NCBI RefSeq assembly: GCF_003790525.1
Contig: NZ_CP033635.1
Length of the DNA stretch: 64,000 nucleotides
Source of the DNA: Escherichia coli
GTDB taxonomy: Bacteria; Pseudomonadota; Gammaproteobacteria; Enterobacterales; Enterobacteriaceae
Reading direction: 5' to 3' (one strand)
Part shown: positions 8,539-40,140 of the stretch, piece after piece
Position numbering within the stretch: the stretch's first letter is position 1
Layout of the letters: each line of letters begins with the position of its first letter
Translations under genes and position numbers: made by a program
The notes under the pieces: generated by a model
The model's input: only the letters and a program-made list of their open reading frames with translations
Databases searched by the model: none
Told to the model about the DNA's origin: nothing

Positions 8539-10818
8539 ATGGATGACCAGTTAAAACAAAGTGCACTTGATTTCCATGAATTTCCAGTTCCAGGGAAAAT
8601 CCAGGTTTCTCCAACCAAGCCTCTGGCAACGCAGCGCGATCTGGCGCTGGCCTACTCACCAGGCGTTGCCGCACCTTGTCTTGAAATCGAAAAAGACCCG
8701 TTAAAAGCCTACAAATATACCGCGCGTGGTAACCTGGTGGCGGTGATCTCTAACGGTACGGCGGTGCTGGGGTTAGGCAACATTGGCGCGCTGGCAGGCA
8801 AACCGGTGATGGAAGGCAAGGGCGTTCTGTTTAAGAAATTCGCCGGGATTGATGTATTTGACATTGAAGTTGATGAACTCGACCCGGACAAATTTATTGA
8901 AGTCGTCGCCGCGCTTGAACCGACCTTCGGCGGCATCAACCTCGAAGACATTAAAGCGCCAGAATGTTTCTATATTGAACAGAAACTGCGCGAGCGGATG
9001 AATATTCCAGTATTCCACGACGATCAGCACGGCACGGCAATTATCAGCACTGCCGCCATCCTCAACGGATTGCGCGTGGTGGAGAAAAACATCTCCGACG
9101 TGCGGATGGTGGTTTCCGGCGCGGGTGCAGCAGCAATTGCCTGTATGAACCTGCTGGTGGCGCTGGGGCTGCAAAAACATAACATCGTGGTTTGTGATTC
9201 AAAAGGCGTTATCTATCAGGGCCGTGAGCCAAATATGGCGGAAACCAAAGCCGCATATGCGGTGGTGGATGACGGCAAACGTACCCTCGATGATGTGATT
9301 GAAGGTGCGGATATTTTCCTCGGCTGTTCCGGCCCGAAAGTGCTGACCCAGGAAATGGTGAAGAAAATGGCTCGGGCACCAATGATCCTGGCGCTGGCGA
9401 ATCCGGAACCGGAAATTCTGCCGCCGCTGGCGAAAGAAGTGCGTCCGGATGCCATCATCTGTACCGGCCGTTCCGACTACCCGAACCAGGTGAACAACGT
9501 CCTTTGCTTCCCGTTTATCTTCCGTGGCGCGCTGGACGTTGGCGCAACCGCCATCAACGAAGAGATGAAACTGGCGGCAGTACGCGCGATTGCAGAACTG
9601 GCCCATGCGGAACAGAGTGAAGTGGTGGCTTCAGCGTATGGCGATCAGGATCTGAGCTTTGGTCCGGAATACATCATTCCAAAACCGTTTGATCCGCGCT
9701 TGATCGTTAAGATCGCTCCTGCGGTGGCGAAAGCGGCGATGGAGTCGGGCGTGGCGACGCGTCCGATTGCTGATTTCGACGTCTACATCGACAAGCTGAC
9801 GGAGTTCGTTTACAAAACCAACCTGTTTATGAAGCCGATTTTCTCCCAGGCTCGCAAAGCGCCGAAGCGCGTAGTTCTGCCGGAAGGGGAAGAGGCGCGC
9901 GTTCTGCATGCCACTCAGGAATTGGTAACGCTGGGACTGGCGAAACCGATTCTTATTGGTCGTCCGAACGTGATCGAAATGCGCATTCAGAAACTGGGCT
10001 TGCAGATCAAGGCGGGCGTTGATTTTGAGATCGTCAATAACGAATCCGATCCGCGCTTTAAAGAGTACTGGACCGAATACTTCCAGATCATGAAGCGTCG
10101 CGGTGTCACTCAGGAGCAGGCGCAGCGTGCGCTGATCAGTAACCCGACAGTGATCGGCGCGATCATGGTTCAGCGTGGCGAAGCCGATGCAATGATTTGC
10201 GGTACGGTGGGCGATTATCATGAACACTTTAGCGTGGTGAAAAATGTCTTTGGTTATCGCGATGGCGTTCACACCGCAGGTGCCATGAACGCGCTGCTGT
10301 TGCCGAGTGGTAACACCTTTATTGCCGATACCTACGTCAATGATGAGCCTGATGCAGAAGAGCTGGCGGAGATCACCTTGATGGCGGCAGAAACTGTTCG
10401 TCGTTTTGGTATTGAACCGCGTGTGGCTCTGTTGTCGCACTCCAACTTTGGTTCTTCTGACTGCCCGTCGTCGAGCAAAATGCGTCAGGCGCTGGAACTG
10501 GTCAGGGAACGTGCGCCAGAACTGATGATTGATGGTGAAATGCACGGCGATGCAGCGCTGGTGGAAGCGATTCGCAACGACCGTATGCCGGACAGCCCTT
10601 TGAAAGGTTCCGCTAATATTCTGGTGATGCCGAACATGGAAGCTGCCCGCATTAGTTACAACTTACTGCGCGTTTCCAGCTCGGAAGGTGTGACTGTCGG
10701 TCCGGTGCTGATGGGCGTGGCGAAGCCGGTTCACGTGTTAACGCCGATCGCATCGGTACGTCGTATCGTCAACATGGTGGCGCTGGCCGTGGTTGAAGCG
10801 CAAACCCAACCGCTGTAA
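8539..10818 (+). CDS. maeB: NADP-dependent malic enzyme (malic enzyme domain plus PTA-like C-terminal domain)
   Basis: 759-aa ORF; N-terminal malic enzyme, C-terminal phosphotransacetylase-like domain. Confidence 0.92.
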
Positions 10819-13414: not shown

Positions 13415-14427
13415 TTATTGAACGTTGTCGTGAACTGGCGTTGCGAGCGCCCGCCAGAGTGGTTTTTCCGGATGCGTTAGATCAGCGTGTGCTGAAAGCT
13501 GCGCAATATTTACATCAACAAGGTCTGGCAACGCCCATTCTGGTCGCTAATCCGTTTGAACTTCGTCAGTTTGCGCTCAGTCATGGCGTAGCGATGGACG
13601 GGCTACAGGTGATTGATCCGCATGGCAACCTCGCAATGCGGGAAGAATTTGCTCATCGCTGGCTGGCCCGCGCGGGCGAAAAAACGCCGCCGGATGCGCT
13701 GGAAAAACTCACCGAACCGCTGATGTTCGCCGCCGCAATGGTCAGCGCCGGTAAAGCGGATGTCTGTATCGCGGGCAATCTCTCTTCCACGGCGAATGTG
13801 CTGCGTGCCGGATTACGCATTATTGGCTTGCAGCCAGGCTGTAAAACGCTCTCATCCATTTTCCTGATGCTGCCACAGTACAGCGGTCCGGCGTTGGGTT
13901 TTGCCGATTGCAGCGTGGTGCCACAGCCGACGGCGGCGCAGTTGGCGGATATCGCGCTTGCCAGCGCCGAAACCTGGCGCGCCATCACCGGAGAAGAACC
14001 GCGCGTGGCGATGCTGTCGTTTTCCAGCAACGGTAGTGCCCGTCACCCCTGCGTTGCCAACGTGCAGCAGGCGACAGAAATCGTCCGTGAGCGCGCACCA
14101 AAGCTGGTTGTCGATGGCGAGTTGCAGTTTGACGCCGCCTTCGTGCCGGAAGTGGCGGCGCAAAAAGCGCCTGCCAGCCCGCTACAAGGCAAGGCCAATG
14201 TGATGGTTTTTCCGTCGCTGGAAGCCGGAAATATTGGCTACAAAATCGCACAACGACTTGGCGGATATCGTGCCGTCGGGCCATTGATACAAGGACTTGC
14301 CGCGCCGATGCACGATCTCTCTCGTGGTTGTAGCGTGCAGGAAATTATCGAACTGGCGCTGGTGGCAGCTGTGCCGCGTCAGACAGAAGTGAACCGCGAA
14401 AGCAGTTTACAAACACTGGTTGAATGA
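13411..14427 (+). CDS. eutD: EutD, phosphotransacetylase
   Basis: 338-aa ORF, PTA family; start overlaps eutT stop. Confidence 0.9.
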
Positions 14428-14465
14428 ACGGTCCCGTTCTGGACCCTGATAAAGAGGAAAGCACA

Positions 14466-14759
14466 ATGGAAGCATTAGGAATGATCGAAACCCGGGGCCT
14501 GGTTGCACTGATTGAGGCTTCTGACGCGATGGTTAAAGCTGCGCGCGTCAAGCTGGTTGGTGTTAAGCAGATTGGCGGCGGCCTGTGTACTGCCATGGTT
14601 CGTGGTGATGTTGCAGCCTGTAAAGCCGCGACCGATGCAGGTGCCGCAGCGGCACAGCGTATCGGCGAGCTGGTATCTGTACACGTTATCCCGCGTCCGC
14701 ACGGCGACCTGGAAGAAGTGTTCCCGATCGGCCTGAAAGGCGATAGCAGCAACCTGTAA
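14466..14759 (+). CDS. eutM: EutM, major BMC shell protein
   Basis: ORF trimmed to ATG 14466 ([26 protein letters not shown]) with AAAGAGGAAA RBS; BMC domain. Confidence 0.92.
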
Positions 14760-14865
14760 TCACCCTGTGTGACGTCGATTCGGGCGTCACGCTCTCTCCT
14801 TTTTCATTTTACCTTCTGCGGAGGGTAGGGGGAGCTTTTACCTGAAATACGCCACGGAGGCGGGT

Positions 14866-15153
14866 ATGAAACTGGCAGTCGTCACTGGACAAATTGTTTG
14901 TACCGTACGCCATCACGGACTGGCGCATGACAAATTGCTGATGGTGGAAATGATTGATCCACAAGGTAATCCTGACGGGCAATGCGCTGTCGCCATCGAC
15001 AATATTGGCGCGGGAACCGGGGAGTGGGTGTTGCTGGTGAGTGGCAGTTCCGCCCGCCAGGCGCATAAAAGCGAAACGTCACCGGTCGATCTGTGCGTGA
15101 TTGGCATCGTCGATGAGGTGGTGTCTGGCGGTCAGGTCATTTTCCACAAATAA
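14866..15153 (+). CDS. eutN: EutN, BMC vertex (pentamer-type) shell protein
   Basis: 95-aa ORF, EutN/CcmL-like. Confidence 0.9.
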   Translation: MKLAVVTGQIVCTVRHHGLAHDKLLMVEMIDPQGNPDGQCAVAIDNIGAGTGEWVLLVSGSSARQAHKSETSPVDLCVIGIVDEVVSGGQVIFHK

Positions 15154-15164
15154 GGCAGAACATC

Positions 15165-16568
15165 ATGAATCAACAGGATATTGAACAGGTGGTGAAAGCG
15201 GTACTGCTGAAAATGCAAAGCAGTGACACGCCGCCCGCCGCCGTTCATGAGATGGGCGTTTTCGCGTCCCTGGATGACGCCGTTGCGGCAGCCAAAGTCG
15301 CCCAGCAAGGGTTAAAAAGCGTGGCAATGCGCCAGTTAGCCATTGCTGCCATTCGTGAGGCAGGCGAAAAACACGCCAGAGATTTAGCGGAACTTGCCGT
15401 CAGTGAAACCGGCATGGGGCGCGTTGAAGATAAATTTGCCAAAAACGTCGCTCAGGCGCGCGGCACACCAGGCGTTGAGTGCCTCTCACCACAGGTGCTG
15501 ACCGGTGACAACGGCCTGACCCTGATTGAAAACGCGCCCTGGGGCGTGGTGGCTTCGGTGACGCCTTCCACTAACCCGGCGGCAACCGTAATTAACAACG
15601 CCATCAGCCTGATTGCCGCGGGCAACAGCGTCATTTTTGCCCCGCATCCGGCGGCGAAAAAAGTCTCCCAGCGGGCGATTACGCTGCTCAACCAGGCGAT
15701 TGTTGCCGCAGGCGGGCCGGAAAACTTACTGGTTACTGTGGCCAATCCGGATATCGAAACCGCGCAACGTTTGTTCAAGTTCCCGGGTATCGGCCTGCTG
15801 GTGGTGACCGGCGGCGAAGCGGTAGTGGAAGCGGCGCGTAAACACACCAATAAACGTCTGATTGCCGCAGGCGCTGGCAACCCGCCGGTAGTGGTGGATG
15901 AAACCGCCGACCTCGCCCGTGCTGCTCAGTCCATCGTCAAAGGCGCGTCTTTCGATAACAACATCATTTGTGCCGACGAAAAGGTACTGATTGTTGTTGA
16001 TAGCGTAGCCGATGAACTGATGCGTCTGATGGAAGGCCAGCATGCGGTGAAACTGACCGCAGAGCAGGCGCAGCAACTGCAATCGGTGTTGCTGAAAAAT
16101 ATCGACGAGTGCGGAAAAGGCACCGTCAGCCGTGACTGGGTTGGTCGCGATGCGGCGAAAATCGCGGCGGCAATCGGCCTTAAAGTTCCGGAACAAACGC
16201 GACTGCTGTTTGTAGAAACCACCGCAGAACATCCGTTTGCCGTGACCGAACTGATGATGCCGGTGCTGCCCGTCGTGCGCGTCGCCAACGTGGCGGATGC
16301 CATTGCGCTGGCGGTGAAACTGGAAGGCGGTTGCCACCACACGGCGGCAATGCACTCGCGCAATATCGAGAACATGAACCAGATGGCGAATGCCATTGAT
16401 ACCAGCATTTTCGTTAAGAACGGACCGTGCATTGCCGGGCTGGGGCTGGGCGGGGAAGGCTGGACCACCATGACCATCACCACGCCAACCGGTGAAGGGG
16501 TAACCAGCGCGCGGACGTTTGTCCGTCTGCGTCGCTGTGTATTAGTCGATGCGTTTCGCATTGTTTAA
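15165..16568 (+). CDS. eutE: EutE, CoA-acylating acetaldehyde dehydrogenase
   Basis: 467-aa ORF; aldehyde dehydrogenase family; eut synteny. Confidence 0.92.
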   Translation: MNQQDIEQVVKAVLLKMQSSDTPPAAVHEMGVFASLDDAVAAAKVAQQGLKSVAMRQLAIAAIREAGEKHARDLAELAVSETGMGRVEDKFAKNVAQARGTPGVECLSPQVLTGDNGLTLIENAPWGVVASVTPSTNPAATVINNAISLIAAGNSVIFAPHPAAKKVSQRAITLLNQAIVAAGGPENLLVTVANPDIETAQRLFKFPGIGLLVVTGGEAVVEAARKHTNKRLIAAGAGNPPVVVDETADLARAAQSIVKGASFDNNIICADEKVLIVVDSVADELMRLMEGQHAVKLTAEQAQQLQSVLLKNIDECGKGTVSRDWVGRDAAKIAAAIGLKVPEQTRLLFVETTAEHPFAVTELMMPVLPVVRVANVADAIALAVKLEGGCHHTAAMHSRNIENMNQMANAIDTSIFVKNGPCIAGLGLGGEGWTTMTITTPTGEGVTSARTFVRLRRCVLVDAFRIV

Positions 16569-18592: not shown

Positions 18593-18607
18593 AAGTGTAC
18601 GGACAGT

Positions 18608-18707
18608 CCCCTCGCCCCTTTGGGGAGAGGGTTAGGGTGAGGGGAACAGAGTCGCTCCGGTGCAAACAATTACCCTCACCCCGGTCCCTCGGCTTCCAGA
18701 GTGAGGG
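18608..18707. repeat. GC-rich intergenic repeat (boxC-like), copy 2, with additional inverted partial copy
   Basis: cccctcgcccctttggggagagggttagggtgaggggaaca matches copy at 5214-5268; downstream ccctcacccc is the inverse of gggtgagggg, so a long hairpin is possible; lies between eutG and eutH. Confidence 0.5.
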
Positions 18708-18761
18708 AAAAACCCACTTTCAGCATTGGCAATAAATAACAACTAACAGGGAGTAAAGGCG

Positions 18762-19988: not shown

Positions 19989-21388
19989 ACACTCGCCAGC
20001 TACTGAGCGTCGGTATCGATATCGGCACCACCACCACCCAGGTGATTTTCTCCCACCTGGAGCTGGTTAACCGTGCGGCGGTGTCGCAGGTGCCGCGCTA
20101 CGAATTCATCAAACGCGAAATTAGCTGGCAAAGCCCGGTGTTCTTTACCCCTGTCGATAAACAGGGTGGTTTAAAAGAAGCGGAACTGAAAACCTTAATC
20201 CTGGATCAATATCAGGCTGCGGGCATTGCGCCGGAAAGTGTTGATTCTGGTGCCATCATCATCACCGGTGAAAGCGCGAAAACCCGCAACGCTCGCCCGG
20301 CGGTGATGACGCTCTCCCAGTCGCTGGGCGATTTTGTCGTCGCCAGCGCCGGGCCGCATCTCGAATCCGTGATCGCCGGTCACGGTGCCGGGGCGCAAAC
20401 TCTTTCTGAACAACGGCTGTGTCGGGTACTGAATATCGATATCGGCGGTGGCACTGCGAACTACGCCCTGTTCGATGCCGGAAAAATCAGCGGCACCGCC
20501 TGCCTCAACGTCGGCGGTCGCCTGCTGGAAACCGACAGCCAGGGGCGCGTGGTTTACGCTCATAAACCGGGGCAGATGATTGTGGATGAGTGCTTCGGCG
20601 CAGGCACTGACGCCCGTTCGCTGACCGGCGCGCAGCTGGTGCAGGTTACCCGCCGGATGGCAGAGCTGATTGTCGAAGTGATTGACGGAACGCTTTCGCC
20701 GCTCGCGCAGGCATTGATGCAAACCGGTTTGCTGCCCGTAGGTGTTACGCCCGAAATCATTACGCTTTCTGGCGGCGTTGGCGAATGTTATCGCCACCAG
20801 CCCGCCGACCCGTTCTGTTTTGCCGATATTGGCCCGCTTCTGGCAACGGCGCTGCATGACCATCCGCGCCTGCGTGAGATGAACGTGCAGTTTCCGGCGC
20901 AAACCGTGCGCGCCACGGTGATTGGCGCGGGTGCACATACCCTTTCGCTCTCTGGCAGCACAATCTGGCTGGAGGGCGTACAACTGCCGCTGCGCAACTT
21001 GCCGGTGGCGATCCCAATTGATGAAAAGGATCTGGTGAGTGCCTGGCAACAGGCGCTGATTCAGCTGGATCTTGATCCTAAAACTGACGCGTACGTGCTG
21101 GCGCTTCCCGCCTCGCTGCCTGTGCGTTACGCCGCGGTACTGACGGTCATCAACGCGTTGGTCGATTTCGTCGCGCGTTTTCCGAATCCGCATCCCCTGC
21201 TGGTGGTGGCCGGGCAGGACTTTGGTAAAGCTCTGGGCATGTTGTTGCGCCCACAGCTACAACAACTCCCGTTGGCAGTCATTGACGAAGTGATTGTCCG
21301 CGCGGGGGACTATATCGACATTGGTACGCCTCTTTTTGGCGGATCGGTTGTGCCGGTGACGGTGAAATCACTCGCATTTCCTTCCTGA
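19985..21388 (+). CDS. eutA: EutA, ethanolamine ammonia-lyase reactivase
   Basis: 467-aa ORF; start overlaps eutH stop. Confidence 0.9.
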   Translation: MNTRQLLSVGIDIGTTTTQVIFSHLELVNRAAVSQVPRYEFIKREISWQSPVFFTPVDKQGGLKEAELKTLILDQYQAAGIAPESVDSGAIIITGESAKTRNARPAVMTLSQSLGDFVVASAGPHLESVIAGHGAGAQTLSEQRLCRVLNIDIGGGTANYALFDAGKISGTACLNVGGRLLETDSQGRVVYAHKPGQMIVDECFGAGTDARSLTGAQLVQVTRRMAELIVEVIDGTLSPLAQALMQTGLLPVGVTPEIITLSGGVGECYRHQPADPFCFADIGPLLATALHDHPRLREMNVQFPAQTVRATVIGAGAHTLSLSGSTIWLEGVQLPLRNLPVAIPIDEKDLVSAWQQALIQLDLDPKTDAYVLALPASLPVRYAAVLTVINALVDFVARFPNPHPLLVVAGQDFGKALGMLLRPQLQQLPLAVIDEVIVRAGDYIDIGTPLFGGSVVPVTVKSLAFPS

Positions 21389-21399
21389 GGGAACGACTT

Positions 21400-22761
21400 A
21401 TGAAACTAAAGACCACATTGTTCGGCAATGTATATCAGTTTAAGGATGTAAAAGAGGTGCTGGCTAAAGCCAACGAACTGCGTTCGGGGGATGTGCTGGC
21501 GGGCGTTGCTGCGGCAAGCTCACAGGAGCGCGTGGCGGCAAAGCAGGTGTTGTCGGAAATGACCGTAGCGGACATCCGCAATAATCCGGTGATTGCCTAT
21601 GAAGATGACTGCGTGACGCGGCTGATTCAGGACGATGTTAACGAAACGGCCTACAACCAGATTAAAAACTGGAGCATCAGCGAACTGCGTGAGTATGTGC
21701 TGAGCGATGAAACCAGCGTGGACGACATTGCCTTTACCCGCAAAGGGCTGACCTCGGAAGTGGTAGCGGCGGTAGCGAAGATTTGCTCCAACGCGGACCT
21801 GATCTACGGCGCGAAGAAAATGCCGGTGATCAAAAAGGCCAATACCACCATCGGTATTCCGGGCACCTTTAGCGCCCGCTTGCAGCCAAACGATACCCGT
21901 GACGATGTGCAAAGTATCGCCGCGCAAATCTACGAAGGGCTTTCCTTCGGGGTGGGCGATGCGGTGATCGGCGTTAACCCGGTGACTGACGACGTGGAAA
22001 ACTTAAGCCGCGTGTTGGATACCATCTATGGCGTGATCGACAAATTCAACATCCCAACTCAGGGCTGCGTACTGGCGCACGTCACCACCCAGATCGAAGC
22101 GATTCGTCGCGGCGCACCGGGCGGGCTGATTTTCCAGAGTATTTGCGGCAGCGAAAAAGGGCTGAAAGAGTTTGGCGTGGAGCTGGCGATGCTCGACGAA
22201 GCGCGCGCAGTGGGTGCAGAGTTTAACCGTATCGCCGGGGAAAACTGCCTCTACTTCGAAACCGGACAAGGTTCGGCGCTGTCCGCTGGCGCTAACTTCG
22301 GCGCTGACCAGGTGACGATGGAAGCGCGTAACTATGGGCTGGCGCGTCATTACGATCCGTTTATCGTCAACACCGTGGTCGGTTTTATTGGGCCGGAGTA
22401 TCTCTACAACGACCGCCAGATTATCCGCGCGGGCTTAGAAGATCACTTTATGGGCAAGCTGAGCGGCATCTCTATGGGCTGTGACTGCTGCTACACCAAC
22501 CACGCTGACGCTGACCAGAACCTCAACGAAAACCTGATGATCCTGCTCGCCACCGCAGGCTGTAACTACATCATGGGGATGCCGCTGGGTGATGACATCA
22601 TGCTCAACTACCAGACTACGGCCTTCCACGACACCGCCACTGTGCGTCAGTTACTCAACCTGCGCCCGTCACCGGAGTTTGAACGCTGGCTGGAAAGCAT
22701 GGGCATTATGGCAAACGGTCGCCTGACCAAACGGGCGGGCGATCCGTCACTGTTCTTCTGA
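21400..22761 (+). CDS. eutB: EutB, ethanolamine ammonia-lyase large subunit
   Basis: 453-aa ORF; 11 bp after eutA. Confidence 0.92.
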   Translation: MKLKTTLFGNVYQFKDVKEVLAKANELRSGDVLAGVAAASSQERVAAKQVLSEMTVADIRNNPVIAYEDDCVTRLIQDDVNETAYNQIKNWSISELREYVLSDETSVDDIAFTRKGLTSEVVAAVAKICSNADLIYGAKKMPVIKKANTTIGIPGTFSARLQPNDTRDDVQSIAAQIYEGLSFGVGDAVIGVNPVTDDVENLSRVLDTIYGVIDKFNIPTQGCVLAHVTTQIEAIRRGAPGGLIFQSICGSEKGLKEFGVELAMLDEARAVGAEFNRIAGENCLYFETGQGSALSAGANFGADQVTMEARNYGLARHYDPFIVNTVVGFIGPEYLYNDRQIIRAGLEDHFMGKLSGISMGCDCCYTNHADADQNLNENLMILLATAGCNYIMGMPLGDDIMLNYQTTAFHDTATVRQLLNLRPSPEFERWLESMGIMANGRLTKRAGDPSLFF

Positions 22762-40104: not shown

Positions 40105-40140
40105 TGTAGGTCTGATAAGACGCGCAAGCGTCGCATCAGG
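40105..40140. repeat. REP (repetitive extragenic palindromic) element
   Basis: gtaggtctgataagacgcgcaagcgtcgcatcaggc matches the REP pattern (gataag...cgcatc...ggc). Confidence 0.6.

Follow-up and report, generated by a model that had tools for sequence, protein, structure and literature searches.

Introduction

How does one operon supply two shell proteins that are needed in very different amounts? Bacterial microcompartments are built from hundreds of shell hexamers per few vertex pentamers, and both kinds of protein are encoded side by side in a single operon. The ethanolamine (eut) operon of Escherichia coli raises this question within a 64,000-nt stretch of contig NZ_CP033635.1 (assembly GCF_003790525.1), which we call the window, and for which RefSeq annotates the gene order eutSPQTDMNEJGHABCLKR. 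According to the list of open reading frames (ORFs) and to RefSeq, eutM (14466–14759, plus strand, stop codon TAA at 14757–14759) encodes the major hexameric shell protein and eutN (14866–15153, plus strand, ATG at 14866–14868) the pentameric vertex protein. Between them, on the same strand, lies an intercistronic spacer (14760–14865), which corresponds to positions 2572051–2572156 of K-12 (NC_000913.3).

An initial annotation, made from the letters of the DNA, had described this spacer as unusually long and structured by a hairpin and a pyrimidine-rich tract, and had proposed that it controls stoichiometry by partial termination or by reduced translation initiation at eutN. Here, we show by RNA folding, comparison of related loci and public RNA-seq tables that the spacer carries two conserved tandem hairpins, and that RNA levels appear to step down modestly from eutM to eutN. 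We give about even credence to the reading that these hairpins are intercistronic protective structures which raise eutM RNA above that of the downstream genes.

Results

A single-copy spacer separates eutM from eutN

With the last base of the eutM stop codon at 14759 and the eutN ATG beginning at 14866, the spacer has the 106 nt originally assigned to it. Its length is indeed unusual for the operon, but it is the second longest gap and not the longest, being surpassed by the 169 nt between eutG and eutH, with all remaining gaps at 45 nt or less. The spacer was found in 5,407 of 5,426 complete E. coli genomes, at an identity of at least 99% in 4,397, and occupies a median of one place per genome across the 5,407 genomes. 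A repeat or mobile-element origin of the E. coli spacer was therefore rejected. No feature is annotated at the spacer in K-12 or among the 12 matches listed from 5,408 matching E. coli records, and the full-text literature, with the old gene names cchA and cchB included, yielded no earlier description of it. An internal promoter was dropped as an explanation because a sigma-70 promoter scan of the spacer gave none on either strand. A small ORF was rejected as well: the sole opening frame (GTG at 14769, 18 codons) has no Shine–Dalgarno sequence (SD) and is destroyed in species whose spacers hold repetitive extragenic palindromic (REP) elements.

The spacer folds into two tandem hairpins on the mRNA strand

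The inverted repeat GTGACG/CGTCAC on which the proposed hairpin rested is real (14769–14774 and 14785–14790), and its exact pattern is found once where 0.17 occurrences are expected for the window. Folding extends the hairpin beyond its first description: in the predicted structure, hairpin 1 (14767–14792, plus strand) begins 7 nt past the eutM stop codon and has a 10-bp stem, including one G·U pair, whose arms GUGUGACGUC and GGCGUCACGC enclose the 6-nt loop GAUUCG. The pyrimidine tract was also recovered, with 26 of the 30 bases at 14790–14819 being pyrimidines, but it is not a separate feature; it makes up the 5′ arm and the internal loop of a second hairpin that had been missed. Hairpin 2 (14794–14834, plus strand) comprises an outer stem (14794–14800 with 14828–14834), an internal loop (14801–14809) and an inner stem (14810–14816 with 14821–14827) closed by the loop UGCG (14817–14820). 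It contains several G·U pairs, and its pyrimidine arm pairs with the purine run GGAGGGUAGGGGGAG.

Both hairpins persist across all folding contexts tried, and both are far more stable in the sense than in the antisense direction (hairpin 1, −16.2 versus −8.0 kcal/mol; hairpin 2, −17.2 versus −6.0 kcal/mol). Taken together they reach −34.7 kcal/mol on the mRNA strand versus −18.4 kcal/mol on the complement. The fold of the whole spacer has an energy of −43.5 kcal/mol (z = −3.0), which one in 200 dinucleotide shuffles equals, whereas the opposite strand scores z = −1.9 against dinucleotide shuffles. This strand specificity arises because several of the pairs are G·U, and it argues for a role in the eut transcript and not in the DNA or in an antisense RNA. 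The hairpin pair ranks at the 0.27th percentile of 70-nt windows in the operon. A scan of positions 14300–15300 with the Rfam covariance models, at E-values up to 10, gave no relevant match and one spurious snoRNA match outside the spacer.

The gap and its hairpins are conserved among relatives

With EutN as the query we collected 48 related loci, in 42 of which both eutM and eutN could be placed. Across these 42 the eutM–eutN gap has a median length of 110 nt (range 52–211), where the neighbouring eut gaps have medians of −4, 38, 11 and 12 nt. It is the longest of the five neighbouring gaps in 41 loci, those of Pseudomonas and Rhodocyclaceae among them, the exception being locus L041, and 39 of 40 distinct spacers fold better than their own shuffles. 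A scan for the first local hairpin of each species caught long-range pairings and was not used further, except for its z-scores and its counts of REP motifs. Upstream of eutM, the eutD–eutM gap (14428–14465) measures 36–41 nt and is conserved in most Enterobacteriaceae, with 243 nt in B. agrestis and 133 nt in C. koseri. Three of the collected loci (L020, L034 and L045), on contigs of 269–466 bp from assemblies labelled Gemelliphila, Prolixibacteraceae and Caballeronia, encode EutN proteins 87–100% identical to that of E. coli and are most likely enterobacterial contamination of those assemblies. In Clostridioides difficile 630, eutM (CD1918, end 2219854) and eutT (start 2219981) are 126 nt apart and several neighbours about 10 nt (PMC3483176, Table 1), which hints that a long gap behind the main shell gene may extend beyond Proteobacteria.

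The spacer is under purifying selection. Its interior is 78–82% identical between E. coli and Citrobacter or Klebsiella spallanzanii, whereas the four-fold degenerate sites of eutD, eutM, eutN and eutE are 55–59% identical (Fisher p = 4e-7 to 2e-4). In an alignment of 16 Escherichia, Citrobacter and Klebsiella sequences, 98.8% of the pair cells are paired, versus 50–67% when the partners are slid. Compensatory changes occur at three pairs of hairpin 2: A-U to G-C in three sequences, C-G to U-A in two, and C-G to G-C at the base. The core of the hairpin 1 stem, GUGACGYC/GRCGUCAC, is kept in Escherichia, Citrobacter, K. spallanzanii, Buttiauxella and Entomohabitans around loops of 5–22 nt; the Yokenella loop is 4 nt long and one stem pair has changed in a compensatory way from G-C to A-U, so that the loop ranges from 4 to 22 nt across species. 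Hairpin 1 contributes little covariation, as its stem barely varies. Among four Escherichia species there are three differences, which lie in the two hairpin loops and in a G-run.

Other genera carry REP elements at the same position

The spacers fall into several classes. Both hairpins are present in Escherichia, the C. freundii group, two other Citrobacter and K. spallanzanii, while Buttiauxella, Entomohabitans and Yokenella combine hairpin 1 with a different second part. Fourteen loci hold REP elements or bacterial interspersed mosaic elements (BIMEs) instead, namely those of Salmonella, most Klebsiella, C. koseri, C. amalonaticus, C. sedlakii, Pseudocitrobacter and Pluralibacter. Unrelated GC-rich stems fill the spacers of Intestinirhabdus, Pseudomonas nitroreducens and two Rhodocyclaceae.

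Within the collected loci the REP motif CTTATCMGGCC is confined to the eutM–eutN spacer of the 14 REP-class members. The REP consensus GCCKGATG...CTTATCMGGCCTAC is absent from the E. coli, C. freundii-group and Buttiauxella spacers. Its tail CTTATCMGGCCTAC has a sole match in the window, with one mismatch, at 40106–40119 on the minus strand in the cysA–cysM spacer, a typical REP location that serves as a positive control for the motif. The E. coli element, which has no such motif and is single copy, is thus not a REP. The occurrence of REP hairpins, known stabilisers of mRNA, at the same position in other genera is the strongest comparative argument for a protective role.

RNA levels appear to peak at eutM and to step down behind it

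Do RNA levels change across the spacer? In enterohaemorrhagic E. coli (EHEC) EDL933 in bovine digestive contents, DESeq2 baseMean values per nt are 1.09 for eutQ, 0.99 for eutT, 1.17 for eutD and 3.70 for eutM, followed by 2.58 for eutN, 0.65 for eutE, 0.41 for eutJ, 0.28 for eutG and 0.22 for eutH (PMC6199705). In adherent-invasive E. coli (AIEC) LF82, eutT, eutD, eutM, eutN and eutE have values of 83, 357, 177, 62 and 149 in a first condition and of 13, 108, 55, 5 and 14 in a second (PMC6379400). Counts are low, and the units of the LF82 table are ambiguous, as its header gives reads per kilobase per million (RPKM) but the magnitudes resemble normalised counts; treated as counts, the LF82 values amount per kb to 528 for eutM, 216 for eutN and 106 for eutE in the first condition. 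The two tables agree that eutM and eutN RNA are unequal, eutM being 1.4 times as abundant in EHEC and 2.4–2.9 times in LF82. eutM has the highest RNA per nt in EHEC, and likewise in LF82 if its values are counts. Behind eutN comes a further drop of comparable or greater size, and a second barrier or cleavage site may be present inside early eutE (the eutN–eutE junction and the start of eutE span 15154–15300). In line with these data, a Salmonella study found shell genes expressed above cargo genes (PMC12487888).

The eutN start has a strong Shine–Dalgarno sequence

The spacer (plus strand) also contains two sets of direct repeats, TTTTACCT at 14807–14814 and 14836–14843, and CGGAGG at 14819–14824 and 14855–14860, 36 nt apart and overlapping the TTTTACCT repeat region. 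These repeats make the 3′ arm of hairpin 2 resemble a second copy of the ribosome-binding region of eutN, one that may have arisen by duplication. An A/U-rich block, UUUUACCUGAAAUA (14836–14849, plus strand), separates hairpin 2 from the SD and is predicted to be unpaired. The block is invariant or nearly so in the 16 aligned sequences; Entomohabitans and most Buttiauxella retain UACCUGAA as well, with UAUCUGAA in Buttiauxella strain A111. The block is a candidate RNase E entry site or standby site; its start appears to fit RN↓WUU, the sequence preference of RNase E.

The eutN translation start region (14850–14868, plus strand) has the SD GGAGG at 14856–14860, 5 nt before the ATG. The ribosome-binding site had been called weak, which proved wrong: the duplex of GGAGG with the 3′ end of 16S rRNA has −9.5 kcal/mol, tied fifth strongest of the 17 eut genes, and the SD duplex of eutM itself is weaker, at −6.0 kcal/mol. 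CGGAGG at the SD does not vary in any hairpin-class sequence, and the REP-class spacers also retain the SD. A small 4-bp hairpin (14850–14853 with 14859–14862, plus strand) encloses ACGGA in its loop, and its stem takes in the last two G of the SD; this hairpin is 100% paired in the 16 sequences. The predicted accessibility of the SD ranges from 0.02 to 0.8 with the amount of flanking RNA folded. Sequestration of the SD is accordingly no more than a possible mechanism, as the unpaired probability, a striking 0.07 in one context, changed completely with the folding window.

Other features of the operon and its surroundings

The longest gap of the operon, the eutG–eutH spacer (18593–18761; 169 nt here and 216 nt in K-12), contains a GC-rich palindromic element (CCCCTCGCCCCTTTGGGGAGAGGGTTAGGGTGAGGGG...) whose repeat family is dispersed, occupying a median of 15 places in each E. 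coli genome. Since eutH RNA lies above that of eutG in LF82 (514 versus 168), the eutG–eutH spacer, too, may alter expression along the operon. At the eutA–eutB junction (21388–21400) a gap of 11 nt separates the two genes, which means that the sequenced strain has an intact operon; in K-12 the CPZ-55 prophage interrupts the operon at this point. On the minus strand between maeB and eutS (8759–10745) are two glycosyltransferase-type genes, one annotated as a 'glucosamine inositolphosphorylceramide transferase family protein' and the other as a glycosyltransferase, which is unusual for E. coli. We know of no such genes at the counterpart position in K-12.

Discussion

The proposal that the eutM–eutN spacer is a built-in control of stoichiometry is best supported in its general form, a device at the RNA level that lowers eutN relative to eutM, but the two routes named for it, partial termination and reduced initiation, find weaker support. 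How could the hairpins raise eutM RNA? We infer that the two tandem stem-loops right behind the eutM stop codon act on the RNA, where they would block 3′-to-5′ exonucleases (PNPase, RNase II) once RNase E has cut downstream. RNA that ends right after eutM would then build up relative to RNA that spans eutN and the later genes, and hairpin 1 might in addition end a minority of transcripts. The structured 106-nt gap would also uncouple the translation of eutN from the heavy ribosome traffic on eutM, and eutN would then rely on fresh initiation at its own strong SD. As regards coupling distance, a structured gap of this length that begins to fold 7 nt after the stop codon should prevent coupling or scanning from eutM to eutN.

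Several observations weigh against a protective role. The RNA step from eutM to eutN is small (1.4–2.9 fold) and is far too small alone to account for the ratio of major shell to vertex protein. In EHEC a larger, 4-fold fall comes after eutN (2.58 to 0.65 at eutE), although the gap there is only 11 nt. The RNA of eutM also exceeds that of the upstream eutD, 3.2-fold per nt in EHEC and 1.5-fold in LF82 only if its values are counts, so that a 3′ barrier alone is an insufficient explanation; this excess points to either 5′ processing or an internal start ahead of eutM. Read as true RPKM, the LF82 values show an isolated dip at eutN with recovery at eutE, which fits neither a barrier nor a terminator. 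The K-12 Term-seq tables list no sense-strand 3′ end at the spacer, because eut is not induced there. The raw stability of hairpin 1 is ordinary (5.7th percentile of 45-nt windows in an operon of 56% GC), and for this reason we have not made thermodynamics our main argument. Covariation is thin, most stem positions never varying, and REPs may settle in any permissive gap, so their presence is no proof of a common function. Finally, Liang, Rudd and Deutscher reportedly found in 2015 that terminating ribosomes stall at REP hairpins lying no more than about 15 nt from a stop codon, which lowers the output of the upstream gene. If applicable here, such stalling would act against eutM, and the proximity of hairpin 1 to the stop codon is therefore not unambiguous support.

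Could the spacer instead hold a leaky intrinsic terminator or attenuator, placed after hairpin 1 or at hairpin 2 with its UUUU, that lowers transcription by a fixed step, RNA decay playing no part? Hairpin 1 passes a lax terminator-like scan, its 10 pairs (6 of them G-C) falling within the 5–14 bp expected of a GC-rich stem and its loop of 6 being short, and RNA is lower past the spacer. In Buttiauxella, CUUCUUUUA or UUUCUUUAA comes directly after hairpin 1, 6 of the first 8 nt being U, and in Citrobacter hairpin 2 runs directly into UUUU. A U run directly after the hairpin 1 stem is, however, found in Buttiauxella only: the E. coli tail, UCUCUCCUUUUU, has 4 U in its first 8 nt and a U5 run only 7 nt after the stem, so that efficient intrinsic termination there is unlikely, and the run after E. 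coli hairpin 2 is just 4 U. Yokenella and all REP-class spacers lack a U-tract, and in EHEC the RNA of eutN is still 70% of that of eutM, with the larger drop behind eutN. We regard a terminator as the whole explanation as unlikely, yet partial intrinsic termination at hairpin 1 may contribute.

A second alternative, which we consider equally unlikely, places the function in translation: the gap would stop re-initiation or 70S scanning from eutM, and the two CGGAGG motifs would form a regulated site, for example for CsrA. Consistent with an insulator, the other tightly packed eut genes overlap or lie at most 20 nt apart, which permits coupling, and only the eutM–eutN and eutG–eutH gaps are long. 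Hairpin 1 begins close behind the stop codon, and the first stem of other lineages, located by eye from the folds, starts about 4–13 nt after it. As to regulation, CGGAGG occurs twice at a distance of 36 nt, and its copy at the SD exposes ACGGA in the loop of the conserved 4-bp hairpin. At least two GGA motifs 10–63 nt apart, one of them overlapping the SD and ideally both in hairpin loops, are expected of a CsrA site; the motifs at 14819 and 14855 might be such a pair, though motifs of this kind also arise from any SD. CsrA binds the eutS leader in Salmonella (PMC10433801), and when RNA from −60 to +60 is folded, the SD of eutN is predicted to be the least accessible of the operon, at 0.07. 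Against regulation stand the swing of that accessibility from 0.02 to 0.8 with the folding window and the strength of the SD itself. The REP-class lineages, moreover, keep the SD alone, so neither hairpin 2 nor the second CGGAGG can be required for any function that all lineages share. A more elaborate version, to which we attach a rather slim chance, is a two-site RNA element in which hairpin 2 holds a sequestered copy of the ribosome-binding site (TTTTACCT...CGGAGG) next to the real SD, and a trans-acting factor sets EutN independently of EutM. By analogy with its control of the eutS leader in Salmonella, CsrA would be the obvious candidate factor. If so, the supply of vertex protein, and hence the size or closure of the microcompartment, would be tied to the Csr carbon-status circuit.

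It seems improbable that the spacer has no dedicated function and is a tolerated gap which gathers hairpins, duplications and REPs and looks conserved only through close kinship. In favour of this view, the sequence is wholly replaced between genera, by unique hairpins, REPs or GC-rich stems, its length varies from 52 to 211 nt, many coding windows of the operon fold equally stably, and covariation is sparse. Yet the spacer is significantly more conserved than the four-fold degenerate sites of the flanking genes, its folding is strand specific, and the hairpin 1 stem endures from Escherichia to Buttiauxella, Entomohabitans and Yokenella despite changing loops and flanks. In addition, the gap is never lost in the 42 loci, where the neighbouring gaps are all short. 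Very improbable, finally, is an element of the opposite strand (the promoter, terminator or body of an antisense RNA running into eutM), which could draw on a −10-like TAAAAT read from the sequence (minus strand, 14811–14806) and on a K-12 Term-seq 3′ end antisense to eutM (2572217, plus; about window 14699; score 946; PMC7815308, supplementary file 1), an end that implies an antisense transcript crossing from the spacer or eutN side into eutM under non-inducing conditions, but that lies 61 nt beyond the spacer, while the minus strand folds much less well, its counterparts of the sense G·U pairs become A·C mismatches, and the scan found neither a −35 element nor a promoter match.

A protective role for the hairpins would matter for how microcompartments are built and engineered. 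The spacer is a concrete, mutable RNA element located exactly where the major shell gene gives way to the vertex gene, and a hairpin is maintained there by different means, as a unique hairpin or as a REP, in 42 loci from Enterobacteriaceae to Rhodocyclaceae. It thereby offers a natural example in which unique hairpins and REP elements appear interchangeable. For the engineering of Eut shells in E. coli, it provides a specific sequence to keep, delete or swap in tuning the ratio of EutM to EutN. The general picture of operon tuning is unchanged by this, and specialists will not be surprised.

How does the spacer compare with known systems? It shares a GC-rich 10-bp stem, a 6-nt loop and a pyrimidine- or U-rich tail with intra-operon Rho-independent terminators and attenuators, but the E. 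coli tail has interspersed C and its U-run comes 7 nt after the stem. Work attributed to Fox in 2009 and to Ramesh in 2012 is said to have placed EutV/ANTAR-controlled terminators inside the eut loci of Enterococcus, Listeria and Clostridium, where hairpins likewise stand between eut genes of an ethanolamine operon and set their relative expression. The ANTAR substrate of the 2012 work by Ramesh reportedly consists of a pair of hairpins with six-nucleotide loops, in which position 1 is A and position 4 is G, and overlaps the terminator; the E. coli loops are instead GAUUCG and UGCG, and loop length differs from 4 to 22 nt between species. Enterobacteria, to our knowledge, use EutR and have no EutV. 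The spacer element is therefore not a canonical terminator, not a member of an Rfam family and not an ANTAR site.

Closer parallels exist among operons with differential decay, for which the malE–malF REP hairpins are the textbook protective 3′ structure, a mechanism since generalised by Dar & Sorek 2018 (PMC5927463). In that mechanism, structured RNA behind a gene needed in excess halts 3′-to-5′ exonucleases after a downstream cut, and the upstream segment outlives the rest (PMC5927463). The eut operon, which was not expressed in that study (PMC5927463), resembles these cases in having a stable stem-loop just past the gene whose product is needed in excess, conserved in relatives, with lower RNA downstream. 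The spacers of Salmonella, most Klebsiella and several Citrobacter even hold actual REPs, as malE–malF does, whereas the E. coli element is a unique single-copy sequence; and unlike most of the structures of Dar & Sorek, which lie inside the downstream ORF (PMC5927463), it occupies a true intergenic gap. Similar too are the pilus operons papBA and cfaAB (PMC5927463), in which one subunit is needed in large excess and its short mRNA segment is the most abundant, just as eutM leads in reads per nt in either dataset if the LF82 values are taken as counts. The stabilised gene of papBA differs in having an RNase E site with a 5′ hairpin and a real terminator, while eut transcription must run for 11 more kb. 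Operon tuning by such hairpins is already familiar, and what had not been described before is its probable occurrence at the eutM–eutN site, where, by analogy, the spacer element would work like the malEFG, papBA and puf class of intercistronic stabilisers.

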